A stretch of DNA of 32,000 nt. It comes from Roseateles asaccharophilus. Lineage in GTDB: Bacteria > Pseudomonadota > Gammaproteobacteria > Burkholderiales > Burkholderiaceae_C. Within the stretch, counting starts at the first letter, position 1, and each line of letters starts with the position of its first letter. A program made the position numbers and the translations under genes. Location of the stretch: positions 382,276-414,275 of the forward strand of contig NZ_JAVDXV010000006.1 in NCBI RefSeq assembly GCF_031458115.1, read 5' to 3'. Positions 5,014 through 20,933 of the stretch are shown here, in pieces. The notes under the pieces were generated by a model. That model did no database searches, was not told where the DNA came from, and was given only the letters and a program-made list of their open reading frames with translations.

Positions 5014-5104
<91 letters not shown>

Positions 5105-7996: not shown

Positions 7997-8441
7997 ATGT
8001 CGCTGACCCATCTGCCCCCCGACGCCCGTCCGCGCGAGAAACTGCTCGCCCGCGGCCCACAGGCGCTGGCGGAGCCGAGCTGCTGGCGTTGCTGCTGCGC
8101 ACGGGGCTCAAGGGCATGCCCGTGCTGCAGCTGGCGCAGAGCCTGCTGGACCGCTTCGACGGCTGGGCCGGGCTGCTGGCGGCCAGCGTGCAAGACCTCG
8201 GCAAGGTCAAGGGTCTGGGGCCTGCCAAGCGGGCGGAGATCGCCGCCGTGCTGGAGATTGCGCGGCGCTCGCTGAACCAGCAGCTGGCCGAGAAGCCGGC
8301 AATGAACGACAGCGACACGGTGAAGACTTATCTGCGCCTGCACCTGGGCGGGCTGGGACACGAGGTGTTCGCGGTGCTGTTCCTGGATTCGCAGCTCAAG
8401 CTCATCGCGATGGAGACGCTGTTCCAGGGCACGCTGGCATC
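7997..8441 (+). pseudogene. radC: radC (RadC/YicR JAB-domain family) 5' fragment, interrupted by the prophage and also frameshifted near 8068-8072
   Basis: Frame 2 gives MSLTHLPPDARPREKLLARGPQALA. Frame 1 continues ..AELLALLLRTGLKG...EVFAVLFLDSQLKLIAMETLFQGTLAS. The homology stops at 8441. Confidence 0.85.
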
Positions 8442-8464
8442 GATCAGCGTGCTGTATTTGCGGA
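8442..8464. repeat. Left terminal inverted repeat (attL, phage-derived P' arm)
   Basis: GATCAGCGTGCTGTATTTGCGGA is the reverse complement of 20680-20702 with one mismatch. It is preceded by TC (8440-8441). Confidence 0.8.
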
Positions 8465-8498
8465 AATCGTGGCCTCCGCTCCGTGCGGCGTTACGGAG

Positions 8499-8529
8499 AA
8501 TTATGTGAATCTACATAATTATGTGAATC
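8499..8529 (+). repeat. Tandem direct repeat AATTATGTGAATC x2 (18-bp register) in an AT-rich patch
   Basis: Exact 13-mers at 8499-8511 and 8517-8529. Confidence 0.8.
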
Positions 8530-8544
8530 AGCATAACGCCTCGT

Positions 8545-8783
8545 AATGACGCACTGAGCGGCCCGCGGCAGGCGACAGCCCGCAGGGCAGTGACTCGCGG
8601 CCGCAGGCCGCTCCCCGCCGGTACGGCAGTGACTCTGATTGCGGCCGCTCAGCCTTTGCCGGAGGCAATGACTCTCAGCCCGCCGCAGGCGGGCTGCCAG
8701 GAATCATCCAGTGACTCGCCCCGCCGGCCAGGCGCCGCCGGAGGCGTGACTCTCGAAAACGCCCTTCCCTGCAGGTCGTTTTC
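8545..8783 (+). repeat. Periodic array of (G/A)TGACTC cores, each followed by a GC-rich hairpin (putative ori/packaging/iteron region)
   Basis: Cores at 8590, 8629, 8668, 8711 and 8746 (spacings 39, 39, 43, 35), plus a degenerate ATGACGC at 8546. Hairpins include 8597-8611, 8676-8696 and 8755-8783. Confidence 0.75.
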
Positions 8784-8809
8784 CACCCCTTCGATATCAG
8801 CGCCCCGCG

Positions 8810-8820
8810 CGCTATACAGG
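8810..8820 (+). promoter_or_regulatory. CGCTATACAGG motif, copy 1 (candidate phage promoter element upstream of the g5p operon)
   Basis: Same motif at 12141, 14911 and 16691, each upstream of a plus-strand phage gene or operon. Confidence 0.35.
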
Positions 8821-8955
8821 TTCAAGGGGGCCTTGAAAACAACAACAAGGTTCTGGGGCGCACCTTCCCCACTGTGAAGGTCGCCGGCGCGGCTCCAGCT
8901 CGCCCCCGGCCTACGCCGCAACTTCAACAACAACCGCTATTCCAAGGGGGAAATC

Positions 8956-9195
8956 ATGCTCAAAGTCGTCGTCTATCAAGCCCGCACCGCTCGTTCTGAA
9001 AAGACCGGTAAGGACTACGTCAGTCAGACCGTCGAAATCGTTCAGTCGCCTGATCGGCCGAACGTCACGATGCGTCGCTTCGCTAAGTCTGAAGCTGAGG
9101 CGCTCAAGCCCGGGCAGTACACCTGCAAAGTGTCCTTCTTCAACAAAGGACTTGACCTGTCGCAGTCGTTCTACGACTTCCAGCCTGCGAAGTAA
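8956..9195 (+). CDS. ssDNA-binding protein, Ff g5p-like
   Basis: 79 aa with AAGGGGG RBS. It starts MLKV.. and ends ..PGQYTCKVSFFNKG...FQPAK, paralleling M13 g5p as I recall it (MIKV...PGLYTVHLSSFKVG...LVPAK). Confidence 0.7.
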   Translation: MLKVVVYQARTARSEKTGKDYVSQTVEIVQSPDRPNVTMRRFAKSEAEALKPGQYTCKVSFFNKGLDLSQSFYDFQPAK

Positions 9196-9197
9196 GC

Positions 9198-9455
9198 ATG
9201 CCCGCCGGCTCGCTCGAGAACGTGATCGTCTGCCGGCCTTCTGCCACGCCAGCCGCTCCCTGCGGCGCCGGCGAGGCCCCGACGGTCCTTCAGGCGTATG
9301 TTCTCGCGCCCTCCAGCTCTTCGTTCGTCGACGCCGCTGCAGGCCCCTACGACTACGCCACGGGCGCCGCCTATTGGTCCGCAGCCTTCGTCTTCACCGT
9401 GTCGTTGTACTTGTGCACCCGAGTCATCGGCACCATCGTCAACATGGTTCGCTAA
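9198..9455 (+). CDS. Small membrane protein, unknown function
   Basis: ATG lies 2 nt after the g5p-like stop. There is a single C-terminal hydrophobic helix (AAYWSAAFVFTVSLYLCTRVIGTIV). Confidence 0.5.
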   Translation: MPAGSLENVIVCRPSATPAAPCGAGEAPTVLQAYVLAPSSSSFVDAAAGPYDYATGAAYWSAAFVFTVSLYLCTRVIGTIVNMVR

Positions 9456-9524
9456 CGCCGCTGGACGCATCCAGCAACCGCCGCGGGTCGGACACCCGCA
9501 CGCTTCAATAAGGAGAACAACAAC

Positions 9525-9740
9525 ATGAAGCTGAACCGTACCGCCGCGCTCGTCGCTGCATCCGTACTGGCCGCACCGGCCGCCTTTGCTGCCGGCCCTA
9601 GCGCTGGTGACCTGTCCAACTTGACGCCCGACGGCGCAACGATCATGACCGCGATTGGCGCCGTCGCCCTCGTGCTCATCGGCATCAACCTGGGCCTCAA
9701 GGGCTTCCGCATCGTCCAGTCCCTGGTCGGCAAGCGCTGA
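9525..9740 (+). CDS. Major coat protein, g8p-like
   Basis: AAGGAG RBS. Signal peptide ends in AFA. The mature ~48 aa has an acidic N-terminus, a hydrophobic core (IMTAIGAVALVLIGINLGL) and a basic C-terminus (KGFRIVQSLVGKR). Confidence 0.8.
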   Translation: MKLNRTAALVAASVLAAPAAFAAGPSAGDLSNLTPDGATIMTAIGAVALVLIGINLGLKGFRIVQSLVGKR

Positions 9741-9748
9741 TAGCGCAG

Positions 9749-9776
9749 AAGGGGCGGCTAACCCCGCCCCTTTCTC
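9749..9776 (+). terminator. Rho-independent terminator/attenuator after the coat gene
   Basis: GGGGCGG-CTAACC-CCGCCCC followed by TTTCTC. This is the typical position after an inovirus g8. Confidence 0.65.
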
Positions 9777-9792
9777 ATCAAGGGGGCCTTTT

Positions 9793-9882
9793 ATGACGAT
9801 CAACGAGCTCTGGTACCTGACGCTGTTCGTGCACGGCGTCATCTGCGCTTGCGCAGTCATCGCTGGCTTGCGGGGTCGTTGA
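9793..9882 (+). CDS. 29-aa hydrophobic protein, g7p/g9p-like minor coat candidate
   Basis: AAGGGGG RBS 6 nt upstream of ATG 9793. MTINELWYLTLFVHGVICACAVIAGLRGR. The stop lies 1 nt before the g3p-like start. Confidence 0.5.
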   Translation: MTINELWYLTLFVHGVICACAVIAGLRGR

Positions 9883-9883
9883 C

Positions 9884-11563
9884 ATGCGCAAGCTGCTCAT
9901 CGCTCTTCTAGCGTTCTCTGTCATCTTCTTTGCTGTTGAGCGCGTACGCGCACAGGCACTACCCTCTTCACCGTTCTCGATCACCGCTAGCGACGCGCTC
10001 ACACTTGCCCGCCAGTCATGGGGAAGTGCATCGCTCATCGTCGGTGGCGGCACCGCCGTCGCAACTACGCTAGCTACCGCTGCCGGCGGCTTGTTCGGTA
10101 TCACGCCTATCGGCTGGGCGGGCATTGGTCTCGTTCTGCTCGCTACAGTGTTGATGACAAGCGACGCCTCTGGCAACTCAATCGCTGTTGTCGTCTCTAC
10201 GCAAGACATCGACGCGTCGCCCAATCCAGACCTTGCTTCGGGCGGTCAGACAACCTCTGGCGTCAGCAACTACTACGCGCTTGCGCCGGTAACGGGCGGC
10301 ATCGTCAAATATATCTCTAGCTCTAGTTGGTCGGCAGTCGGCTCAGATATATTGTCAGAGCCCGCACTACGACTGCGCGCGTATATCGCAACGATGTTCG
10401 CCGTGCCTAACAGTTGGCTGGTCAATAGCATCACCCAGGTCGGCAATACATATGTTGCCAGCAACGGCGGCGATACAACTAATATTGCGTTGGGTCGCTG
10501 CCCGTCTACCTCTTCAGGTTGTGTCGCACTTATATTTACTGCGCCCGTCGGGACTACCAAAGCTGAGTTTGAGTCAGTAATACCGGCCCTGCCGCCGTTC
10601 GCTGCCGCAGCTTGGACGATTCGGCCTAGTGGCGGAGCTCGCCCCTATTTCGCCATCGCAGTTCCTCTGGTTCTCGTCAACGAGATTATCAACTGCGACC
10701 CTTCGACGAGTTACTACGAATACTCTACAGCCAGCTGCATTCTGCTAAAGCCTACAACTACTGAGCCGCTTTCCAACGGTATGTGCCGAGTTAGCTGGTC
10801 TACGGATGGCTGCCCGGTATTCAACCGGCAAGACCCGGACTGCGCTTCAGCAGCCATCACTTTGTCTTGCGGTAGTGCGTCAGTCGCGCCATCGGTCACT
10901 GTTCTTGATCGAGCCACGGGTCAGACAGTTACTACCTCGCGCCCTGCTGTCGCTAGCCAAGGCCAACCGGGCTCTGTAACTGTCAAAGAGCGTACTCCCA
11001 ACGCAGCAAATGGCACTACTGTTGAGCGCTTGACTACAACGCAGTACCAAGCCGCCCCGGCGGGTCAGCCGAAGCCTGCGCCCGTCACCAACGGCGCTAA
11101 CCAGTCGACGTTGCCGGGCACTGGCGCTAACACCGGCAGCACGCCTGTCGCGCAGGTATCTGTGAGCAACTGGCCCTCGGTCGTAAACGTTCAAGGCACG
11201 GTCACGTGCACGAACTGCTCGACCGCTCAACAGCCCGTCAATATCAACGTGCCCGACCGCTTCAAGATTGACGGCGAAGTTCCCGCTGACGCGACCGGCC
11301 TGCCTACGCCGCCTGAGGCCGCCCCGCCAGCCGGCTTCATCACGAAGCTCAAAGAACGCCTTGCCGGCTTCGCAAACATCGAGCTGCCGCCGCACACAGC
11401 CACGTGCCCGCGCCTGGACATCAGCTGGCACGCATGGGGCGTCAATCTCGACTTGTCTAACAACACGATGTGCGCGTTTCTCGAAGAGCACCGCACGCTC
11501 TTCCAGGGCCTCATGCACTTCGCTTACATCGCCACCGCGATCATCATCGTCTTGGGAGCCTGA
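9884..11563 (+). CDS. Adsorption/minor coat protein, g3p-like
   Basis: 559 aa with a signal peptide, paired Cys residues, Ser/Thr/Pro/Gly-rich linkers and a C-terminal membrane anchor (FAYIATAIIIVLGA). Position matches g3. Confidence 0.7.
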   Translation: MRKLLIALLAFSVIFFAVERVRAQALPSSPFSITASDALTLARQSWGSASLIVGGGTAVATTLATAAGGLFGITPIGWAGIGLVLLATVLMTSDASGNSIAVVVSTQDIDASPNPDLASGGQTTSGVSNYYALAPVTGGIVKYISSSSWSAVGSDILSEPALRLRAYIATMFAVPNSWLVNSITQVGNTYVASNGGDTTNIALGRCPSTSSGCVALIFTAPVGTTKAEFESVIPALPPFAAAAWTIRPSGGARPYFAIAVPLVLVNEIINCDPSTSYYEYSTASCILLKPTTTEPLSNGMCRVSWSTDGCPVFNRQDPDCASAAITLSCGSASVAPSVTVLDRATGQTVTTSRPAVASQGQPGSVTVKERTPNAANGTTVERLTTTQYQAAPAGQPKPAPVTNGANQSTLPGTGANTGSTPVAQVSVSNWPSVVNVQGTVTCTNCSTAQQPVNINVPDRFKIDGEVPADATGLPTPPEAAPPAGFITKLKERLAGFANIELPPHTATCPRLDISWHAWGVNLDLSNNTMCAFLEEHRTLFQGLMHFAYIATAIIIVLGA

Positions 11564-11566
11564 CGC

Positions 11567-11863
11567 ATGTACGCAGCACTTCTCGCCGTCCTGGGCCGCG
11601 TTTTTGCGTGGGTCATGGGCGCCGGCACGCTCAAATGGGCCGTTGGAGCATTCTTGCTCTTCGGCGTCACGATCCTCGTCGACATCCTGCTCGACCTGCT
11701 TCCCACTTGGTTCGACCCAGCCCAGCTCGTCGGCGCGACCTCCGTCTTCACGCCCTCGATCTGGTACTTCCTGGACTACTTCGCTTTCCAGACCGGGCTC
11801 TCGATGATGTTTGCCGCGTACGCAGTGCGTTTCTTGATTCGTCGTCTCCCGGTCATCGGCTAA
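11567..11863 (+). CDS. Integral membrane minor coat protein, g6p-like
   Basis: 98 aa, multi-helix hydrophobic, immediately after the g3p-like gene. Confidence 0.6.
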   Translation: MYAALLAVLGRVFAWVMGAGTLKWAVGAFLLFGVTILVDILLDLLPTWFDPAQLVGATSVFTPSIWYFLDYFAFQTGLSMMFAAYAVRFLIRRLPVIG

Positions 11864-11897
11864 GAAGCAGTGATCCCCTCTGGGGACGCCTAAACGG

Positions 11898-12140
11898 CTA
11901 ATCCGGCTTCGTCAGCTCAGCGCTGTGTACTCGCACCGCGTGCGAACCGCTCACTTGACACGTTAGTTTGTCGCCGACTCGCAGATCGCGCCAGTCCACG
12001 CCTTCCACACTCTTCCCTATGCTGAGCTGCAGCCCGCCTTCTGACTCAGCTCTTGCTATCTCGAGCTCTGCGACGACTGCCGTCACTGTCGCCGTGACAG
12101 TCTGCTGTTCGTAGTTCATGTGCTGATGTTGCCTGCGCAT
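11898..12140 (-). CDS. Doubtful reverse-strand 80-aa ORF in the g6-g1 gap
   Basis: It is the only ORF in a 303-bp plus-strand gap. There is no convincing RBS at either ATG (12140 or 12119), and it uses rare codons. Confidence 0.3.
   Translation of the reverse strand: MRRQHQHMNYEQQTVTATVTAVVAELEIARAESEGGLQLSIGKSVEGVDWRDLRVGDKLTCQVSGSHAVRVHSAELTKPD
12082..12098. promoter_or_regulatory. Inverted repeat GTCAC-N7-GTGAC
   Basis: GTCACTGTCGCCGTGAC, about 45 bp upstream of CGCTATACGG motif copy 2. Confidence 0.35.
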
Positions 12141-12150
12141 CGCTATACGG
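12141..12150 (+). promoter_or_regulatory. CGCTATACGG motif, copy 2 (upstream of zot/g1p)
   Basis: CGCTATACGGTCAAAAGGGGG parallels CGCTATACAGGTTCAAGGGGG at 8810-8830. Confidence 0.35.
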
Positions 12151-12166
12151 TCAAAAGGGGGACCGC

Positions 12167-13261
12167 ATGGCTATTCATGCAATCACAGGCGTTATGGGCT
12201 CTGGCAAGAGCTACGAAGCCGTTTCAGAGAAGATCGTTCCAGCGCTTCGAGACGAGGCCGCTCGTCGCGTAGTCACGAACATCGAAGGCTTGTCTGTGCC
12301 AGCTATCGCTGCGTACATCAACAAGCCTGAGAGCGAGGTCGAAGCACGCATCGTTCGAATCAGCTACGACCGCGTCAGCGAACCTGGCTTCTGGTACGAC
12401 CCTGAGCACGGCTCGGGGTCCGAAACCGTTGTCCAGCCCGGCGACCTGGTCGTACTCGACGAGGTCTGGCGCTATTTCAACCGTGGCGACAAACTGCCCG
12501 AGGATGCAATGCGCTTCTTCCGCATGCACCGACACTACGTGAGCGAGCAATCGGGTCTCACCTGCGACGTTGTGCTCATCAACCAGAGCTTTCGCGGTAT
12601 ACACCAGGACATTCGCGACGTAGTCGAGTTGCAGTTCCAATGCCGCAAGCTCAAAGCCCTCGGACGGCCTCAGAACTACCAAGTGCTCTTGCTGGAGGGC
12701 GGCGAGCGCAAGCCCTCGCACGACTACATTCGCACTTACTCGAAGAGGGTCTTCCCGCTATACAGCAGCTACGCCGGCGGCCAGGGCAAAGAGGCTGTCG
12801 ACAAGCGGCAGAGCGTCTTCAACACGCCCTTCTTCAAGGTCGTTCTGCCGCTGTTCGCGGTCCTCATGGTCTTCGGCGTCTACAAGACGTACAGCTACTT
12901 CGCCGACATGGGCAAGCCGGCTGACGGCGCAGCGCTCGTAACCCCATCAGCTGCTGCGTCATCGCCTTCGGGCCTGCCGACGCCGCCGTCAGCTGGTGCG
13001 GCTCCTGCGCCTGCGCAGTCAGCTTTCAGCACTGCGTCTGGCTCCGCGGCCGATTGGCGCCTCGTCGCACGCTACAGCGTCGGTGGCTTGCCTGTTGTCG
13101 TCATGGTCAACGCCAGTGGCCAGTACCGAACTGTGACGAGCGGCAGCTACACGCAGGGCGCGTCCACTGACGTCTCAGTACAGATTCCGCTCGATCCGTC
13201 TGATCGCGCTACGCCTTGGTCTGGCCCTGCTCCTGCATCGACCAAGGGGGCCGCGCGATGA
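12167..13261 (+). CDS. Zot/g1p-family assembly ATPase
   Basis: N-terminal Walker A GVMGSGKS, DE Walker B (VVLDEVW), a central TM helix (VVLPLFAVLMVFGVY) and a periplasmic C-terminal part. Confidence 0.85.
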   Translation: MAIHAITGVMGSGKSYEAVSEKIVPALRDEAARRVVTNIEGLSVPAIAAYINKPESEVEARIVRISYDRVSEPGFWYDPEHGSGSETVVQPGDLVVLDEVWRYFNRGDKLPEDAMRFFRMHRHYVSEQSGLTCDVVLINQSFRGIHQDIRDVVELQFQCRKLKALGRPQNYQVLLLEGGERKPSHDYIRTYSKRVFPLYSSYAGGQGKEAVDKRQSVFNTPFFKVVLPLFAVLMVFGVYKTYSYFADMGKPADGAALVTPSAAASSPSGLPTPPSAGAAPAPAQSAFSTASGSAADWRLVARYSVGGLPVVVMVNASGQYRTVTSGSYTQGASTDVSVQIPLDPSDRATPWSGPAPASTKGAAR

Positions 13262-14610
13262 ACCGCAAGATCGCCCTCATCGGCGGCTTCCTCGTTGTGA
13301 AGAAGATCGTCGTCATCGCGGTGCTGGCGATGCTCGTCGGGTCGAGTGAAGCCCAGCCGGCGCTCAAGCTCCCGCCGCCTCCGGCGCCGGTGCCTGCCTC
13401 CGGCTTTCAGACGTTCGGCACTGGTCTACCCCTTGCCGAGTTCTTGAAGATCGCTCTAGGCGAGCTCTCTGGCCGCCCCTACGTTCTCGCTCCGGAGGTG
13501 GCTGCTTCGTCTCAGCTTGTTGCTGCAGACCTGACTAAGTCGAAACTCAAAGACCCGCTGCCGCTCGTCCGGGCCGTCATTGAGCCGCTTGGCCTCGAAA
13601 TCCGAGACCTCGGCGGCGTTCTGCTCGTCGACAAGCGCCGCACTGAGGCATCGAAGAAGAGTCCAGGTGACACGTTCACCTACCGCCCTCGGCATCGCTC
13701 TGTCAACAGCCTTTCGACGTACTTCAATATGTTCCCCGAGCTCGCTTTCAGCTACTCGGGCGGCCTCGCTGTCCGCGCCCAGACCGTCTCCAGCTCCGAC
13801 TCCACCGAGCCCGGCAAGGCTCTGCAGCCGACCATGAGTAGCGGCGCCACCACTTTTAGCGCGCAGGACAAAGACCCGAGCTTTCTCGTCGTCGCCGGCG
13901 ACGCCGCAGAGATTAGTCGTTTCAAGACCTTGATCGTTGAGTTGGATGTGCCTGTTCCCCAGGTGCTCGTCAAGGCCTATGTGTTTGAAGTCCGGACTAC
14001 AGACGCTCGCGATGGCGGTGTGAAGCTCGTCGCTGATCTGCTTGGCGGCCGCGTCGGCTTCAACCTCGGCGGCGCGTCCAGTTCTACCACGCCGGATGCT
14101 CTACGACTCACTCTTCCCAACGTCAGTCTTGCTGTGTCTGCGCTGGCTGCGGACAGCAGAGTGCGCCTCGTCAGCTCGCCGGTTCTCAGAGTTGATGACA
14201 GCACTACCGCTAGCGCTACTGTGGGCACCTCTACGCCCACTCTGGGTGCTATCGTCAGTCAGAACGGCTCGACCCAGCAGAGCGTGTCATATCAAGAGGC
14301 CGGCGTTTTGCTGTCTGTTAGCGCGCGAGTCCTTGAAGCGAGCATCCGTCTTACCATCTCGCAAGAGCTGTCTAGCTTCGTCAAAACGGACACCGGGCTC
14401 TCGAACACTCCGACTAAGCTCCGCCGCGCTTTCAAATCTGACGTTGTCGCCCGTGACGGCGAAGCTCTTCTGCTCGGGGGCCTGACAGAAGCTCAAACGT
14501 CTGATGCCAAGCAAACCAGCTTCTTCGGCTTCGGCTCAGCCTCTAAGTCGACTTCAAGCTCTGAAGTCGTCGTGCTGTTGACTGCTACTCGTCTCGATCA
14601 GCAGCAGTGA
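13258..14610 (+). CDS. Secretin, g4p-like
   Basis: ATG 13258 overlaps the zot stop as ATGA. Signal/TM N-terminus and a C-terminal secretin-type domain (VLVKAYVFEV...RLVSSPVLRV...YQEAGVLLSV...ALLLGGL). Confidence 0.85.
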   Translation: MNRKIALIGGFLVVKKIVVIAVLAMLVGSSEAQPALKLPPPPAPVPASGFQTFGTGLPLAEFLKIALGELSGRPYVLAPEVAASSQLVAADLTKSKLKDPLPLVRAVIEPLGLEIRDLGGVLLVDKRRTEASKKSPGDTFTYRPRHRSVNSLSTYFNMFPELAFSYSGGLAVRAQTVSSSDSTEPGKALQPTMSSGATTFSAQDKDPSFLVVAGDAAEISRFKTLIVELDVPVPQVLVKAYVFEVRTTDARDGGVKLVADLLGGRVGFNLGGASSSTTPDALRLTLPNVSLAVSALAADSRVRLVSSPVLRVDDSTTASATVGTSTPTLGAIVSQNGSTQQSVSYQEAGVLLSVSARVLEASIRLTISQELSSFVKTDTGLSNTPTKLRRAFKSDVVARDGEALLLGGLTEAQTSDAKQTSFFGFGSASKSTSSSEVVVLLTATRLDQQQ

Positions 14611-14866
14611 GTGAGTCGATCCACATCTGCCATTCCTCATAAAACACACACTCCGTGCCGTCTTCGAGAAGCAGCAAAGCTCGCCTACTTCGCGCGAATT
14701 GAACGCATTTGTCTCTAACTTCTTCACCCATATCAGAGAGCACTACGTACCGAGTGCCACATGGCGTTGCGTGTACCGGTGTGAATCTCTTCTTCGACGC
14801 CACACAGCCTCCAAGCGTAAATATATGTAACAAGCCCGGGTCAGCCAAAAACGCCCACTGAATCAA
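14585..14866 (-). CDS. Orphan hypothetical protein (AT-rich cargo)
   Basis: 93-aa ORF convergent with and overlapping the secretin 3' end by 26 nt. No recognisable motif, and the start is uncertain. Confidence 0.4.
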   Translation of the reverse strand: MIQWAFLADPGLLHIFTLGGCVASKKRFTPVHATPCGTRYVVLSDMGEEVRDKCVQFARSRRALLLLEDGTECVFYEEWQMWIDSLTAADRDE

Positions 14867-14889
14867 GGCAGTTCTTCTAGCGCCTCCAA

Positions 14890-14905
14890 GTCACGATTTC
14901 GTGAC
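14890..14905. promoter_or_regulatory. Palindrome GTCACGA-TT-TCGTGAC (operator candidate)
   Basis: 7-bp perfect arms, 5 bp upstream of CGCTATACAGG copy 3, in a divergent intergenic region. Confidence 0.45.
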
Positions 14906-14910
14906 CTCGA

Positions 14911-14921
14911 CGCTATACAGG
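14911..14921 (+). promoter_or_regulatory. CGCTATACAGG motif, copy 3
   Basis: Identical 11-mer to 8810-8820. It lies upstream of the ORF starting at 14972. Confidence 0.35.
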
Positions 14922-14971
14922 TATGTACGGGCTGCGCGTTGCAGCCCCACCCAACCCTGAAAGGCGCTTCC

Positions 14972-15415
14972 ATGAACTTCGAATACTTTGACGACGGTTG
15001 CCATCACAATCTCGGCGACATCAATACAAATGGATATGTTTTCGTCGCATCTCAAGATGAAAACATTTCGTCTAGTGAGCTTGAATCTGCTGCATATGAA
15101 GCAGACGCGCGTCGCTTCTGCGCTGATTTGAAGACAATTCGTCGCATCAGCATGCTACCTGTGACTTTTCTTACGGGGCACCATGTCGTAGCTTGCATTC
15201 GAGTTACTACAGCGTCTCGGACGTATTCGCTCTACACCAACGATTTTGGTGACAGCCTGCTTGATGAGTCGCACTACACATTGTTCTTCAAACGCAATTT
15301 CAGTCTCTTTCGCTACGATCTTCAGACTCCTCAAGGCCGGGCCGCTGCTCGTGAATATGTTCGTCGCAAGTTGAAGTTTTTGGCACAGCACGGCAAGCCT
15401 TTTGACGGTTATTGA
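14972..15415 (+). CDS. Orphan hypothetical protein (AT-rich cargo)
   Basis: ATG 14972 within ORF 14939..15415 (the track start is TTG). 147 aa (MNFEYFDDGCHHNLGD...) with no recognisable motif. Confidence 0.5.
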   Translation: MNFEYFDDGCHHNLGDINTNGYVFVASQDENISSSELESAAYEADARRFCADLKTIRRISMLPVTFLTGHHVVACIRVTTASRTYSLYTNDFGDSLLDESHYTLFFKRNFSLFRYDLQTPQGRAAAREYVRRKLKFLAQHGKPFDGY

Positions 15416-15528
15416 GTACGCGCGGCGGTCGGCGGACAGCGAGCGAGGAGCGGACGGACACACATGCCTCGCCCGCACCGCAGCGAGGGTCCGTCGCCCG
15501 CCGCGACTCTTCAAAAACTCCAGTCCGG

Positions 15529-15711
15529 CTAGGCCGATTTCGCGCCCGTCAGTTTTGTAATTGCGTTCCTATACTGAATTGGAAGCGTGGTCACACTAGG
15601 GTACACATCGGCGGGCACTGGGGAGTGCCCGTCGTCCTTTCCGAATCTTTCTTCCACCTCGGCCGGCGTCAATCTGACGAACGGCCTCTTTTTCGCGTCA
15701 ATTTCGGTCAT
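15529..15711 (-). CDS. Small hypothetical protein, last gene of the reverse-strand operon
   Basis: 60 aa. Its ATG overlaps the upstream stop as ATGA (15708-15711). KKRPFVRLTPAEVEERF could be a ribbon-helix-helix, which is speculative. Confidence 0.45.
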   Translation of the reverse strand: MTEIDAKKRPFVRLTPAEVEERFGKDDGHSPVPADVYPSVTTLPIQYRNAITKLTGAKSA

Positions 15712-16088
15712 TCTTGATCTTCTTGATGCTCGCCCGCGCCCCGGCGCGGGCCCTGGTCCGGGTTTGCTTTCTTCGCTATCACTAGGTCGCCGACGACGTC
15801 AAACTCGATCTGCTGTCCTGGCCGCAGGTCCATAGCTCTACGTATCGCTGCGGGTATCGTTATTAAGTTCCGCCTGTTCATGGTCGAGTGCCATTGCATA
15901 CTCTGCTTCGCTCGGTCGACTATCGTCTCGACGCGAGGAACAAGCTCAGACTTCAGCGCTTCTGCGATCCAGCGCACTTCGTGCTCAGACGGGTCGTGAA
16001 TTCGAATCTGCGCCACGATCTGCTGCACGAGCTCTGACAGCACTCTGTTGCGCTCAAACTGAATCATTTCTTCGTCACTCGGGATCAT
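15708..16088 (-). CDS. Protein with a C-terminal AbrB/SpoVT/MazE-type DNA-binding domain (candidate phage regulator or antitoxin)
   Basis: NLITIPAAIRRAMDLRPGQQIEFDVVGDLVIAKK fits the looped-hinge-helix pattern. The likely start is ATG 16088 (MIPSDEE..). The track ORF extends to 16130. Confidence 0.55.
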   Translation of the reverse strand: MIPSDEEMIQFERNRVLSELVQQIVAQIRIHDPSEHEVRWIAEALKSELVPRVETIVDRAKQSMQWHSTMNRRNLITIPAAIRRAMDLRPGQQIEFDVVGDLVIAKKANPDQGPRRGAGEHQEDQE

Positions 16089-16434
16089 TTTTGATCCCAA
16101 AAGCTCGGTACGCGGCTTCTCTAGACACAATGTGCTTGTTCTCGGGCGCTGACGCTGCTGCGATCACGCGCAGCGCACCTTCCGCAGTCTTGAACCGCTC
16201 TTCTGTCGTGCGGATGAGCCATCGCACGTCTGCTCTCGTGAGCGCCCAGCACTTCTCGTTCGACTGCCGCATCAGCGGCCGCGCCAGGTATGCGACTTTG
16301 AATCCAGCACTGTGCGCCCGCCTGCGTGTTGCCACGCTTACAAGCTGATCCGCGAGGTCGTTGAGCTTCTCGAAGCGCAAGAACATCTGCCCTTCGTTGT
16401 CGAAGTCCGTCATATCCGCACAGTCTTGGTGCAT
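16075..16434 (-). CDS. Hypothetical protein, first gene of the reverse-strand regulatory operon
   Basis: 119-aa ORF divergent from rep, overlapping the next gene by 14 nt. An alternative start is at 16413. No motif recognised. Confidence 0.5.
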   Translation of the reverse strand: MHQDCADMTDFDNEGQMFLRFEKLNDLADQLVSVATRRRAHSAGFKVAYLARPLMRQSNEKCWALTRADVRWLIRTTEERFKTAEGALRVIAAASAPENKHIVSREAAYRAFGIKNDPE

Positions 16435-16636
16435 TTCAATAGCTTGCCGCTATCGAAAAATCGACGGTTTCGCGCCTCCCGGCTGCATCGAGTTTTTGCA
16501 ATCCTCACTACGTCGGACAGCAGCCTGAGGCTGCATGACTCTACTCTAACGTCGGACGGCATGGGGAGCCTATCTTCTCTCGCTTCAAAAACTCGATGCT
16601 AGACCGTCGCTCCTGAGTCGGCAAAAAGCGCATTTC

Positions 16637-16648
16637 TTGCTATAGCAA
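16637..16648. promoter_or_regulatory. Perfect 12-bp palindrome TTGCTATAGCAA
   Basis: Read directly, in the rep/regulator divergent intergenic region. Confidence 0.4.
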
Positions 16649-16667
16649 AAACCAATCGACTTTCGGG

Positions 16668-16680
16668 GTCAAGACTTGAC
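16668..16680. promoter_or_regulatory. Palindrome GTCAAG-A-CTTGAC overlapping a TTGACA hexamer
   Basis: 6-bp perfect arms, 10 bp upstream of CTATACGGG motif copy 4 (16691-16699). Confidence 0.4.
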
Positions 16681-16690
16681 ATCGCCGGAC

Positions 16691-16699
16691 CTATACGGG
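16691..16699 (+). promoter_or_regulatory. CTATACGGG motif, copy 4 (upstream of rep)
   Basis: Shares CTATAC(A/G)GG with copies at 8812, 12143 and 14913. Confidence 0.35.
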
Positions 16700-16792
16700 G
16701 TGTACCCCCACAACGGCCCCGCGAGGTAGATCACAGCGCACTGCGCAAATCGAGGACATGAGTCGGATAGGGCCATCAACCCAGCCCTCCCC

Positions 16793-18736
16793 ATGTCCGC
16801 TTCTACTGCCATCTCCCCGGCGGAGCTTCTCCACTCTGCAGAGCTCAACGCCGCTCCCGCACCTTCATCTGCCTTCGGCCCGCTGCCCCTCGCAAAGGCG
16901 CTGCAAGCCGGCCTTCTCGCTGCACGCGCAGAGTTCTGCGGCGACCTTCCAGCCCACCTTATTGGCGCCACTGCGCCGGAGCGCTACGACGCCGCTGCTG
17001 CGACGGCTGAGCGCTTTCAAATGCTTCTGGGAACGGCGAGTGACGATCACGCTCTGCTTGACCGCCTTGTTCAGCTTGCGCAGGCCGATCTGGGTGGCTT
17101 CGCTTGGCGCAGCTCGACCGTCGCGTCGGCGGTCACCTCGAAGTTGATCGAGCGGCACAAAGTGGAGCTCAAGTCTGTCGCGGCCGTCTTTGAGTTCGAT
17201 GCTTCTGTGGGCGAGCGTGTTCTAGCTATCGCCAACGCACACCTCGGCCGTCCTGTTCCCGGCGACTCGCTTCAAACGAAGGTCTCGCGCATACTCGACC
17301 GCAAGTTCTGGCTTCGGCACTACTCAAAGCTCGCCCGCCAGCGTGACGAGTTCTCCTTCATCAAGTCCGGCTTCGTTTCTGCGGCTGGCGAGAAGTACAT
17401 CAGCGACCGCGGTCTGTCACGCCACTCCGAAGCTCTGGCGGCACAGCAAGCGTGGCTCGAGTCGACCGTCCTCATCGACCACAGCGCAGCAGCTTCTACT
17501 GGCAAGTTCAAGTACATCAAGCTCGCTGACGCAGCGAAGCGCGCGGCGCACCGTGATGCAAGCCTGTGGGCGTTCCTCACCGGCATCGAGCAGCTCAGCA
17601 TCGAATCCAACCTCGAATGCGCGCTCGTCACCCTTACGGCGCCGTCATCCTTTCACGCCTGCCCCGGCACTCGCTCCAAGTTGTTCGACGGCGTCAGCAC
17701 ACCCCTCGACTCGCACAAGTACATCGCTAGCCGCTGGACGGCCTTCCAGCGCGATCTTGACAACGAAGGCCTCGCGGTCAGCGGTGTCCGCGCTACTGAA
17801 CCGCAGGGCGACGGCACATGCCATTGGCATGTCTGGCTGCACTATGCGCCCGACACTCTGCCGAGCATCCTCTCCCGCTTGGCTCACTACTTCCAAGGCG
17901 ACACCGCTCGCCGTGTCGAACCTGTAGTCGTTCGTCAGGTCGAAGCTGACTTGGCCGGCCGCAAGGTCAACAAGAAGACCGGTGAGCGCTTCAGTGAGTC
18001 GTTCAGCGTTCTGCGCGCCGGGGCGCTCGTTCAGCGTTCAACGAAGCCAGCTGCTCAGGTCGACTTCAGCGTCATCAATCGCTCGTACGCGTCCGGCGCT
18101 ACTTACATGGCCAAGTACACGGTCAAGTCGTTCGATCAGTCCGAGAACAGCAAGCGTGTCCACGCATGGCGCTGGACCTGGGGCGTACGCGGCTTCCAGC
18201 TCTTCGGGCTGCGCAACTGCCGCGGACTCTGGGATGAGCTCTACCGCGCCACTGAGCGCCCCTTCGATTCGCGCGCCGCTGCGCTGTGGGACGCTGTCCA
18301 CGCTGAGCCCGGCAAGCACACCCGCCAGGTCATCAACCCGCTTACTGGACTGCAGGAGGTTGAGCACTACGAGGGGGGCACCGCTGCATTCATTCGCCTT
18401 CAAGGCGGCCTCGCGGCTGCCGGTGGCGCTGCAGGCCTGCGCATCAAGATCACCTACGTGCCTGCTGAAGGACGCTATGGCGACTTCATGAAGCGCCGCC
18501 GCGGACTTCGCATCATGCTTGGCGACACGGTGCTCTACAGCTTCAAAACCCGCGAGCCGGGGCGCTGGGTCATGTCTGCCGAGGGACGCGTTGAGCAGAC
18601 CTTCAGCGCTCTGCGCCGCATCCCGTTCGTCGATGCGGCAGAGCTGATCGAGCTGACCTGCGCTGAGTTCAAAGCCCTCCTCGCCAGCTATGCGGCCGGC
18701 GTCGACCCGTTCACCGGCGAAATCCTCGACGCATAG
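16793..18736 (+). CDS. Rolling-circle replication initiator (HUH endonuclease)
   Basis: 647 aa. HUH-type motif GTCHWHVWLHY (HWH at 17822-17830) and tyrosine motif YMAKYTVK (Y..KY at 18104-18118). Confidence 0.75.
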   Translation: MSASTAISPAELLHSAELNAAPAPSSAFGPLPLAKALQAGLLAARAEFCGDLPAHLIGATAPERYDAAAATAERFQMLLGTASDDHALLDRLVQLAQADLGGFAWRSSTVASAVTSKLIERHKVELKSVAAVFEFDASVGERVLAIANAHLGRPVPGDSLQTKVSRILDRKFWLRHYSKLARQRDEFSFIKSGFVSAAGEKYISDRGLSRHSEALAAQQAWLESTVLIDHSAAASTGKFKYIKLADAAKRAAHRDASLWAFLTGIEQLSIESNLECALVTLTAPSSFHACPGTRSKLFDGVSTPLDSHKYIASRWTAFQRDLDNEGLAVSGVRATEPQGDGTCHWHVWLHYAPDTLPSILSRLAHYFQGDTARRVEPVVVRQVEADLAGRKVNKKTGERFSESFSVLRAGALVQRSTKPAAQVDFSVINRSYASGATYMAKYTVKSFDQSENSKRVHAWRWTWGVRGFQLFGLRNCRGLWDELYRATERPFDSRAAALWDAVHAEPGKHTRQVINPLTGLQEVEHYEGGTAAFIRLQGGLAAAGGAAGLRIKITYVPAEGRYGDFMKRRRGLRIMLGDTVLYSFKTREPGRWVMSAEGRVEQTFSALRRIPFVDAAELIELTCAEFKALLASYAAGVDPFTGEILDA

Positions 18737-18929
18737 CGCCTCGCAAGTTCGAATCCGCCTGATCCGCTCAGGCCCACACACCCCGCACCCGCGGGGCGCA
18801 GCCACTGGCGAGCCTCTGAAGTGTGATGGGATTCGAACCAACCCTCAGGTCTGAGCTTCGCCGATCCGCGCGGCGCTTCGCGCGGGCGACGCCTCGAAAC
18901 CGGCTTAACCGGGCCGGCAAGGCGCCTCA

Positions 18930-18953
18930 GGCGGGCCCCGTAGGGGTCCCGCC
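18930..18953. terminator. GC-rich hairpin between convergent rep and recombinase genes
   Basis: GGCGGGCCCC-GTA-GGGG(T)CCCGCC. There is no clear U-tract, so terminator function is uncertain. Confidence 0.35.
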
Positions 18954-18991
18954 CTTGGATAGATATGCGTAACTTTCTAACCCTGAATTTA

Positions 18992-20611
18992 CTAGGACTT
19001 TTTGAGGCTCGGCAGTTCAAGCTCACCTTTCAGGCTTGCAGCCCAGGCCGGCTGCGCGTCGCCCTGCGCTTTCACCCCGAGCGGTATCGTCAGCAGCTGC
19101 TGCGAGTTCTTGAACTGAACTGCGACTAGGTCATACGCCCAGAGCCAAATCACGTCCACGGCTCGTCGTAGTCTGTTGTTGCAGTCCGCGCGTAGACGCA
19201 TCGCATCGTCTGACGTCTCGAACAGCACTGCGATGACTTGCTCTGCGTAAGCCGTGTCAAATAGCGAGTTTGGGTTGACTGCCAGCTGCGCTTTGAGCTC
19301 TTCGATGACGTTCTCAAGCTGCTCACGTTCAGCGGTCAACCTGGCAATGTCTTGAAGTACCTCGGGCACGGCGCCCACGGCTCTGCTGACTGCTACGACG
19401 TTTGCTATTGCGGTCTTCACGTCAGCGAGCTTTGACTCAGCTACCGCAACTTCTTTCACCGCTGCGTCTTTGTCGTACCCCAGGCCCAGGTGCGCTCCCG
19501 CGTACGCACATATGTCTAAGATGACCTGCGCTTCGGTCTTCAGCGCTGACATCGTCTTGCACTTCGTAATCCCGGCCGCTTTTGAAGAGCAGATCAGCTG
19601 TGCCCTGCTCCAGCCGCGGTACTCGACTTTTCGCTGTATCGACGCGCCACAGTGCCCGCACCTGAGCAGTCCACTGAATACGTGAAAGTAGTTGCCATCG
19701 CGTTTTGGCGGCGCTGTTTTGCGCGTCTGGACTGACGATCTTGCGAGGTGCCAGAGGTCGTCACTTATCACCCGAGGGTAGTAATCCTTGATCGGTGGTC
19801 CTACTGCTACAGGCACGTCACTCTCAAGCTCTTTCAACACGTTCTTGCCTTTGAGCTTGTGCTGAGCCTCTCCCAAAACTGCCCTGTTCTTCAGGATGAT
19901 TTGCGGCATCCTCGAATGCCAGTGTTCTGTTGTCATCGAGGTCACGCGTGTAGGTACCGGCCAGCCTTCTGCGTTCGCTAGCTTCGCAATCGTAGGCCCG
20001 CCCATTCCGCGGCCAGCCGCTTCGAACACTTTTCTCACGGACTCAGCCAGCTCTTCGACAACTTCCCAGTCGCCTCCCGCTTGACTTCTTCTCAGCCACC
20101 CCGGAGCTGAGCCGAAGACCTTCTTGCCTTCTTCTCGTTTTCGCTTGAACGTCTCGCTTACACGCCCGCCCTTGCGAAAGCTCTCTTCGTGCGCTTGCGC
20201 GAACGCAAGCATCATGCCGATCAGAGCGGCGATGTTGTTCAGCGACTTCTTCGTGTAGATGTGCCCGTCGAGCAACGTGACGATGTTCACGTCTTTGCGC
20301 AGGATCGACTTGACCAGCGTGTCTGCATCGTCAATCTCTTCGCGACTGAGCCGGTCGAAGTGTTCAATCAGCAGATAACTGCCCTTCGGCACCCTGCCCT
20401 CTTCCACCTGCTCCAAGAACGCCGCGAGGTTGCCTTTCGTTCTGTGCTTGCCGGTGAAAGCACTCAAGCCGAGGTCCGCGACGCTCTCATCGAGCTTCAT
20501 GCCGTGCTGCGCGCACCACCGCTCTGCTGCATCGCCCTGTCGTTCTTCTGAGCGCCCTTTTGATTGTCTTGCCGACGAAAATCGAACGTAGCTGATGACC
20601 CGAGGCTTCAT
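18992..20611 (-). CDS. Large serine recombinase (integrase)
   Basis: Resolvase-type N-terminus ([12 protein letters not shown]...[11 protein letters not shown]), a recombinase domain, a Cys4 zinc-ribbon (CGHCG...C..K..C) and a coiled-coil C-terminus. ATG 20611 is preferred; the track start TTG 20623 is possible. Confidence 0.9.
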
Positions 20612-20679
20612 GTCGATAGTCAAATCCTTGTTCCGAAGATATGGAATTCTAGTGCAGATCAGCGTTCAATATCTTCGAA

Positions 20680-20702
20680 TCCGCAAATACAGCACGCTCA
20701 TC
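20680..20702. repeat. Right terminal inverted repeat (attR, phage-derived P arm)
   Basis: TCCGCAAATACAGCACGCTCATC followed by TC (20703-20704). It is the reverse complement of 8442-8464 with one mismatch. Confidence 0.8.
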
Positions 20703-20933
20703 TCCACGACCGTTCACCCGCGCGAGGTCGTCAAGCGCGCGCTGGCGCTGGGCGCGGGTGCCGCCATCCTGGCGCACAACCACCCCAGCGGCCACGCCGA
20801 GCCGTCGCGCGCCGACGAGTTGCTGACGAAACAGCTCAGCGACGCGCTGGCGCTGGTGGACGTGCGCGTGGTGGATCACCTCGTCGTGGGCGCCGGTGAT
20901 GTCGTTTCCTTTGCCGAGCGGGGTCTGCTGTGA
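20703..20933 (+). pseudogene. radC 3' fragment (JAB/MPN domain)
   Basis: ..[42 protein letters not shown]...[21 protein letters not shown] carries the canonical RadC C-terminal motifs HNHPSG and SFAE. Confidence 0.9.

Follow-up and report, generated by a model that had tools for sequence, protein, structure and literature searches.

A translationally coupled operon with a C-terminal AbrB/MazE domain, divergent from rep in a filamentous prophage of Roseateles asaccharophilus

What is the role of a three-gene operon that diverges from the replication initiator gene (rep) of a filamentous (inovirus) prophage, consists largely of orphan sequence, and carries its one recognisable DNA-binding domain at the C-terminal end of its middle protein? 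We addressed this question in a 32,000-nucleotide stretch of Roseateles asaccharophilus DNA (assembly GCF_031458115.1, contig NZ_JAVDXV010000006.1, forward-strand positions 382,276 to 414,275), hereafter the window, in whose own coordinates all positions are given. The three genes, which we call A, B and C, are located on the reverse strand. We tentatively propose, with somewhat less than even confidence, that B is the repressor of a temperate filamentous phage, modulated by its partners, and acts on the palindrome-rich intergenic region between A and rep. An earlier note on this DNA had suggested repressor or immunity, toxin-antitoxin (TA)-like and excision-control functions without choosing among them; the first two are both compatible with the evidence assembled here, and sequence alone cannot separate them. 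The genes, the junction between A and B, and rep are as follows:

16075 to 16434, reverse strand: gene A, 119 amino acids (112 from the ATG at 16413), basic, with an isoelectric point (pI) of 8.7 (9.6 for the short form), an orphan without a family.
15708 to 16088, reverse strand: gene B, 126 amino acids from its ATG, acidic (pI 5.6), the sole recognisable DNA-binding regulator of the prophage.
15529 to 15711, reverse strand: gene C, 60 amino acids, proline-rich, an orphan whose start overlaps the stop of B (ATGA).
16081 to 16098, reverse strand: a perfect RNA hairpin at the A/B junction, GGGAUCA-AAAA-UGAUCCC, which encloses the GGGA ribosome-binding-like motif and the AUG of B.
16793 to 18736, forward strand: rep, a P2 gpA-type rolling-circle replication initiator of 647 amino acids (PF05840, 2.4e-29) and the presumed regulatory target.

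The genes overlap by 14 nucleotides between A and B (16075–16088) and by the ATGA between B and C (15708–15711). A check of the open reading frames (ORFs) returned the same coordinates that the earlier note had given for three coupled reverse-strand genes divergent from rep, and an independent gene caller found the same three genes (112, 126 and 60 amino acids) in a public contig with an identical prophage, starting A at 16413. Ribosomes finishing A would open the junction hairpin, which is the textbook arrangement for translational coupling. Such tight coupling, junction hairpin included, argues for the co-expression of real genes. Fusion of A and B by frameshifting was also considered and rejected on direct reading, since B is read +1 with respect to A and the sequence offers no canonical slippery site.

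Coding potential was assessed with a codon log-odds model trained on five phage core genes, with all six frames compared. In A, in C and in both halves of B, the annotated frame outscored the other five, and the highest coding score in the operon (0.29 per codon) was that of the N-terminal 63 codons of B. The model recovered the true frame in 102 of 104 segments (189 nucleotides each) of the reference genes, a test that is partly circular in that the segments come from the training genes. The GC content of the operon genes at the first, second and third codon positions matches the phage core gene pattern, and their overall GC content of 55–59% is like that of the phage core and unlike that of the low-GC stretch next to C. 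C is the least secure of the three genes, with a codon score of 0.166 against 0.134 for one reverse frame. The strong coding signal of the N-terminal part of B indicates that its AbrB domain is genuinely C-terminal. Production of this domain as a separate small protein from Met64 or Met70 was rejected, given that the 63 codons upstream are in frame and have the top coding signal, and that the gene caller gives a protein of 126 amino acids. B can be divided into three parts:

15897 to 16088, reverse strand: B residues 1–64, an orphan N-terminal extension with two predicted long helices (residues 5–27 and 35–64), delimited from the codon signal and a low-confidence AlphaFold2 (AF2) model.
15768 to 15896, reverse strand: B residues 65–107, the AbrB/MazE/SpoVT swapped-hairpin DNA-binding domain, delimited from profile matches.
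15711 to 15767, reverse strand: B residues 108–126, a short and probably disordered tail that ends in the acidic run EHQEDQE.

By profile criteria, B carries a genuine AbrB/MazE-type DNA-binding domain. It scores 31.9 bits against Pfam PF04014 (cut-off 24.7) and 30.4 bits against NCBIfam TIGR01439, "transcriptional regulator, AbrB family" (cut-off 28.3), and matches the PHROGs antitoxin family phrog_4681 more weakly; the best labels from Pfam, PHROGs and NCBIfam are all antitoxins (MazE_antitoxin, phrog_4681 and PrlF). The motif NLITIPAAIRRAMDLRPGQQIEFDVVGDLVIAKK corresponds to residues 74–107. In a HMMER sequence search of the PDB, residues 74–110 align with the N-domain of Abh, and Arg83-Arg84 line up with the Arg-Arg pair in the recognition helix of Abh; we take this pair to be equivalent to the DNA-contacting R23/R24 of AbrB. 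The domain profile retrieves PH1932 (2glw), Abh, SpoVT, AbrB, and archaeal AbrB-type and Sso7c4-type regulators from the same database. In every significant PDB match (E ≤ 0.03), including full-length SpoVT (178 amino acids), the AbrB domain starts at residue 8–23. An N-terminal position is therefore usual, and B, with its domain at residues 65–107 of 126, departs from the usual architecture. The earlier note had recognised the motif at the C-terminus of the middle protein instead of its usual N-terminal place, with helical sequence before it and an acidic tail after it, and had proposed profile comparison as a check. The AbrB-like segment holds up at the profile level, and the helical sequence appears in the low-confidence model as a hairpin of approximately 64 residues.

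One half-barrel of this domain family runs beta-beta-alpha-beta-beta. The single-sequence AF2 model of the domain places strands at residues 73–77, 93–99 and 102–106 and a helix at residues 80–85, with a predicted local distance difference test (pLDDT) score of about 50–65; the first strand (65–71) is not modelled, although the sequence similarity to a phage MazE described below extends over residues 65–114. Overall confidence was low for both B (pLDDT 60) and A (pLDDT 50, mostly helical), and Foldseek comparison of these low-confidence models with the PDB and BFVD gave nothing with E < 0.3.

The closest sequence relative of B is a 78-amino-acid protein of Microcystis phage MaAM05, which is 42% identical over 50 residues (B residues 65–114) and was the sole match to B among 50,697 phage records. 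This relative is a canonical MazE, with an N-terminal domain, and is followed by a PemK/MazF gene that it overlaps by 14 nucleotides. From this comparison, B carries a MazE/AbrB domain that has lost the C-terminal arm with which such antitoxins usually bind the toxin (only about 19 residues remain after the domain) and has gained an orphan N-terminal extension. Compared with AbrB, Abh and SpoVT, B scores above both curated cut-offs, keeps the Arg-Arg pair and has a second domain available for multimerisation. It differs from them in that the domain order is reversed, the additional domain is an orphan helical hairpin, a Leu stands at the position aligned with AbrB R15, and the gene is in a betaproteobacterial phage and not in a Firmicute chromosome. 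By analogy, the N-terminal extension could act as the C-terminal multimerisation domain of AbrB does, in reversed order.

The remainder of the operon (A, C and the N-terminal part of B) has no detectable relatives among about 15 billion proteins. For A, B and C, a word-indexed search across 5.8 billion clusters returned the proteins of this window and nothing else, and an exhaustive phmmer search of 1.84 billion representatives gave just two weak matches to B, in the AbrB domain alone. A and C matched no Pfam, PHROGs, NCBIfam or PADLOC family, toxin and defence models included, and the N-terminal part of B likewise had no model match; tblastn against phages gave chance matches or none, and PDB sequence searches gave chance matches only. 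This agrees with the description of the flanking 119- and 60-amino-acid proteins as orphans in the earlier note. Scans of genome and viral contig collections found no locus related to B, Rep, Zot or the integrase, and the prophage as a whole had no megablast match in the phage collection. A possible HEPN-type toxin motif in A was rejected on direct reading: the motif is defined as Rx4-6H, and the spacing in A is R37-x3-H41.

The position of the operon supports a role in lysogeny. Located on the reverse strand, it is separated by 358 bp from rep, from which it diverges. Genes placed divergently to rep are normally those that control lysogeny in temperate inoviruses, as with rstR in CTXphi and pf4r (pf4r/xisF4) in Pf4. 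Ralstonia phage RSM3 has a reverse-strand block made up of a recombinase and an annotated "putative phage repressor" (ORF13-14-15). The operon resembles these immunity genes (RstR, Pf4r/XisF4 and the RSM3 block) in its reverse-strand location beside rep and an integration module, where control of rep and lysogeny is expected. B is the only protein of the prophage with a recognisable regulator domain in Pfam, PHROGs and NCBIfam scans. A small operon for a DNA-binding regulator beside rep is what would be expected of a temperate inovirus; what sets this one apart is the inverted AbrB architecture and the two orphan partners. The candidate control region has the following features (no strand is assigned except where given):

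16435 to 16792: the divergent A–rep intergenic region, 358 bp, a candidate operator or origin region, more structured as single-stranded DNA (ssDNA) than shuffled sequence (z −3.4).
16485 to 16498 and 16586 to 16599: the arms of a perfect 14-nucleotide inverted repeat, GCATCGAGTTTTTG, 87 nucleotides apart.
16510 to 16522 and 16549 to 16561: two 13-nucleotide direct repeats, ACGTCGGAC(A/G)GCA, 39 nucleotides apart, inside the large hairpin.
16637 to 16648 and 16668 to 16680: palindromes TTGCTATAGCAA and GTCAAGACTTGAC, respectively, on the rep side of the region, from direct reading.
16596 to 16624, reverse strand: a weak promoter-like site for the operon, TTGCCG-17-TAGCAT (8/12), inferred, with a −10 element that overlaps the right arm of the inverted repeat.

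The GCATCGAGTTTTTG repeat closes a 125-nucleotide hairpin with a predicted free energy of −24.9 kcal/mol (z −4.25). In the reading that we favour, the three genes would together control lysogeny and replication in a temperate filamentous phage. The C-terminal domain of B would dimerise into a swapped-hairpin barrel, with the helix bearing Arg83-Arg84 contacting DNA. The N-terminal helical hairpin is proposed, from its model, to be an oligomerisation or partner-binding domain; it would either support higher-order assembly or provide a surface on which a co-translated partner, most probably A, could dock. By binding the palindromes in the 358-bp region, B would repress the promoter of the divergent rep as well as its own operon, and would so keep the prophage quiet and confer immunity. 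A and C, made in a fixed ratio with B through translational coupling, would modulate B as co-repressor, anti-repressor or stabiliser.

Several observations weigh against B as a phage repressor. B is the second gene of the operon, and it is A that lies next to rep. Known inovirus repressors are generally single helix-turn-helix proteins, whereas here an AbrB fold is encoded in a coupled three-gene operon. Pairwise alignment revealed no similarity of B, or of A, to the RSM3 ORF15 repressor, so the system cannot be filed under a known inovirus repressor family. The B domain has its closest sequence relative in a canonical MazE antitoxin, the partner of a MazF toxin, and this points towards a TA ancestry. 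Because homologues are lacking, neither conservation nor co-variation can be called upon. A stricter promoter scan returned nothing at 16596–16624, and neither scan gave a convincing sigma-70 promoter. The large inverted repeat may be an ssDNA element, such as a packaging signal or a minus-strand origin, and the ACGTCGGAC(A/G)GCA copies may be Rep iterons or origin elements instead of operators; in general, the intergenic elements could equally be operators or the packaging signal, minus-strand origin or Rep iterons of an ssDNA phage.

Other observations were made in and around this region. A third, partial copy of the direct repeat, GTCGGATAG, is located at 16762–16770, just upstream of the rep start. 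The public gene caller places that start at 17021, and codon statistics back 16793. No LexA-box-like sequence (CTGT-N8-ACAG) was found in the control region, its matches across the whole window were below chance, and no Rfam RNA family was found in 14400–17000. On the other side of the operon is one further structured element:

15408 to 15520, no strand assigned: an imperfect hairpin with 30-nucleotide arms (77% complementary) between the convergent C and ORF 14972–15415, with a third copy of GAGTTTTTGAAG (15509–15520, reverse strand).

This hairpin was rejected as a terminator for C, as its z score of −1.6 is not significant against shuffled sequence and it has no T-run. Exact 12-nucleotide direct repeats, CTTCAAAAACTC on the forward strand and GAGTTTTTGAAG on the reverse, flank the module and its upstream 150 nucleotides at 15509–15520 and 16583–16594, each lying within the right-hand arm of one of the large inverted repeats. 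If up to two mismatches are allowed, the window contains 8 matches, where 0.98 would be expected. These repeats could be common protein-binding sites, a trace of cassette acquisition, or chance.

The main rival, though on balance unlikely, is that the operon encodes a toxin-first type II TA or addiction system of a new family, with A as toxin, B as antitoxin and C as an accessory third component. The N-terminal hairpin of B would neutralise A and the C-terminal AbrB domain would autorepress the operon, and the module would stabilise the prophage or the replicative form; it may also influence phage production, as PfiT/PfiA does in Pf4. The antitoxin labels of B and the 42% identity of its domain to the MazE of the MaAM05 MazE-MazF (PemK) pair speak for this model. 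Both MaAM05 MazE and B are small acidic proteins encoded in operons with a 14-nucleotide overlap, and the genes here are likewise small and overlapping; the pairing of an acidic B (pI 5.6) with a basic A (pI 9.6 in the 112-amino-acid form) is a charge pattern that is suggestive only. Canonical MazE/PemI/PrlF antitoxins, however, consist of an N-terminal domain and a toxin-binding tail of 25–35 residues and are followed by a MazF/PemK gene, whereas B has an N-terminal extension, a tail of about 19 residues that is too short for a MazE-type toxin-binding arm, and neighbours without a toxin family match.

Toxin-first systems come closer in layout. The antitoxins of HicAB, MqsRA and BrnTA have C-terminal DNA-binding domains, which would explain the atypical placement in B, although those domains are of the helix-turn-helix or ribbon-helix-helix type and not AbrB. 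In common with these systems and with pasABC, paaR-paaA-parE and PfiT/PfiA, the operon is carried on a prophage, is translationally coupled, encodes a basic protein ahead of an acidic one whose DNA-binding domain is C-terminal, and includes a third gene, which is optional in such systems; unlike them, its A and C proteins have no toxin homology. At E ≤ 1, no toxin model in Pfam, NCBIfam, PHROGs or PADLOC matched A or C, while the MaAM05 MazF used as a control was recognised at 1e-10. A has no similarity to this MazF, and its low-confidence, mostly helical model is unlike the RelE, HigB and MazF folds. The operon therefore combines a putative DNA-binding antitoxin with overlapping small genes, but has no adjacent toxin of a known family, and cannot be filed as a type II TA system. 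Tripartite TA systems do exist (PMC4803016), and the inovirus Pf4 carries the PfiT/PfiA pair (PMC7264888). Among inoviruses, 15 TA sets were catalogued in 181 genomes, with one MazE_antitoxin family among them (PMC6813254). TA pairs are nonetheless rare in this group (181 of 5,964 genomes, approximately 3%; PMC6813254), and the module is in the usual position of a regulator.

The repressor and TA readings are not mutually exclusive. One way to combine them, which we consider quite improbable, is that A and B, with or without C, found a new toxin-first TA family in which an antitoxin with a C-terminal AbrB domain and an N-terminal helical neutralising domain is paired with a toxin of new fold. 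The module would have taken over the place of the repressor in a filamentous phage, and the complex would there both stabilise the prophage and gate rep expression.

It is also decidedly unlikely, in our judgement, that the operon is accessory cargo for host manipulation with no part in phage control (a moron, with B acting for example on host promoters, or a superinfection exclusion system), or that A and/or C are not real genes. In favour of this, all three genes are orphans, and inovirus genomes are rich in uncharacterised accessory genes (PMC6813254). The adjacent stretch of about 920 bp is lower in GC and looks acquired, exact GAGTTTTTGAAG repeats flank the module, and the codon score of C is only slightly above that of the competing reverse frame. 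Codon statistics and the independent gene call nevertheless back the annotated frames, the coupling with its junction hairpin is tight, and the GC content of the module follows the phage core and not its low-GC neighbour.

Excision control is very doubtful. In this reading, C or A would be the recombination directionality factor that binds the large serine integrase and switches it from integration to excision (attL x attR recombination), with B regulating its expression. The prophage does have such an integrase, and none of its proteins is a recognised directionality factor, but nothing positive points to this role: A and C have no family match or homologues. The operon and the integrase gene are about 2.5 kb apart, with rep between them, and a directionality factor and a repressor that are constitutively co-translated would counteract each other. 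Known directionality factors of serine integrases are small, diverse and often orphan, such as the 64-amino-acid Orf7 of TP901-1, and are not defined by any one sequence family. The corresponding regulatory region of Pf4 contains an excisionase gene, which is named alongside that of the repressor (PMC7264888).

We found no paper in the literature that describes an AbrB-type regulator in an inovirus. The sole trace is a single two-member inovirus protein family annotated as MazE_antitoxin in the catalogue of Roux et al. (PMC6813254). If B is a repressor, the lysogeny control of filamentous phages would extend to the AbrB/MazE fold, with reversed domain order. If A and B are instead a TA pair, the toxin family would be new, and toxin-first order would be seen once more together with a DNA-binding domain at the C-terminus. 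The scope of either conclusion is narrow, as it concerns a single orphan prophage without relatives from which to generalise, and the evidence gives no sign of a mechanism beyond the known categories.

The prophage itself stands out as an island of lower GC content (55–63%) between approximately 9 and 21 kb in a window that is otherwise about 65–74% GC. The host protein SerS is consistent with a Burkholderiales betaproteobacterium: it is closest to a protein from a Pseudomonadota metagenome-assembled genome (82% identity), and then to those of Sphaerotilus, Hydrogenophaga, Piscinibacter and Rhizobacter (80–81%). The setting described in the earlier note, a temperate inovirus with a large serine integrase, is borne out by the presence of Zot, secretin, coat, g6, SSB and GPA-type Rep genes together with the integrase gene. 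In addition to rep and the operon, the genes are:

8956 to 9195, forward strand: a single-stranded DNA-binding (SSB)-like protein of the inovirus prophage.
9525 to 9740, forward strand: the major coat protein.
9884 to 11563, forward strand: a g3-like protein.
11567 to 11863, forward strand: a g6-like protein.
12167 to 13261, forward strand: Zot/pI.
13258 to 14610, forward strand: the pIV secretin.
18992 to 20623, reverse strand: the large serine recombinase (integrase).

Zot has counterparts in inoviruses from Ralstonia, Vibrio, Xanthomonas and metagenomes, none of them more than 37% identical. The nearest phage relatives of rep are P2-like tailed phages (24–26% identity) and not inoviruses. 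Between g6 and Zot, an 80-amino-acid ORF on the reverse strand (11898–12140; 73 amino acids by the public caller) interrupts an otherwise one-directional structural module and has no family match. The stretch of about 920 bp between the secretin gene and C (14611–15528) has a GC content of 48–51%, and the public gene caller called no gene in it. A forward-strand ORF at 14939–15415 (TTG start; 147 amino acids from the ATG at 14972) lies there in the best-scoring of the six frames, and a reverse-strand ORF at 14585–14866 has weaker coding potential; neither matches a family.

The prophage spans approximately 8436–20698 (12.3 kb) and splits radC, which is intact in relatives, into an N-terminal part at 8089–8508 and a C-terminal part at 20595–20933. 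A tRNA-Ser gene is the integration target of Ralstonia RSM inoviruses that have small serine recombinases. In the present window, a tRNA-Ser(CGA) gene is located at 5014–5104 on the reverse strand, 3.4 kb from the prophage, and is not the integration site. The two radC junctions have the sequence GCACGCT in common (8429–8435 and 20692–20698). They also carry inverted arms of 18–19 nucleotides, CAGCGTGCTGTATTTGCGG and CCGCAAATACAGCACGCT (8445–8463 and 20681–20698), which are probably the P′ and P arms of a serine-integrase attP, as expected for such a site.

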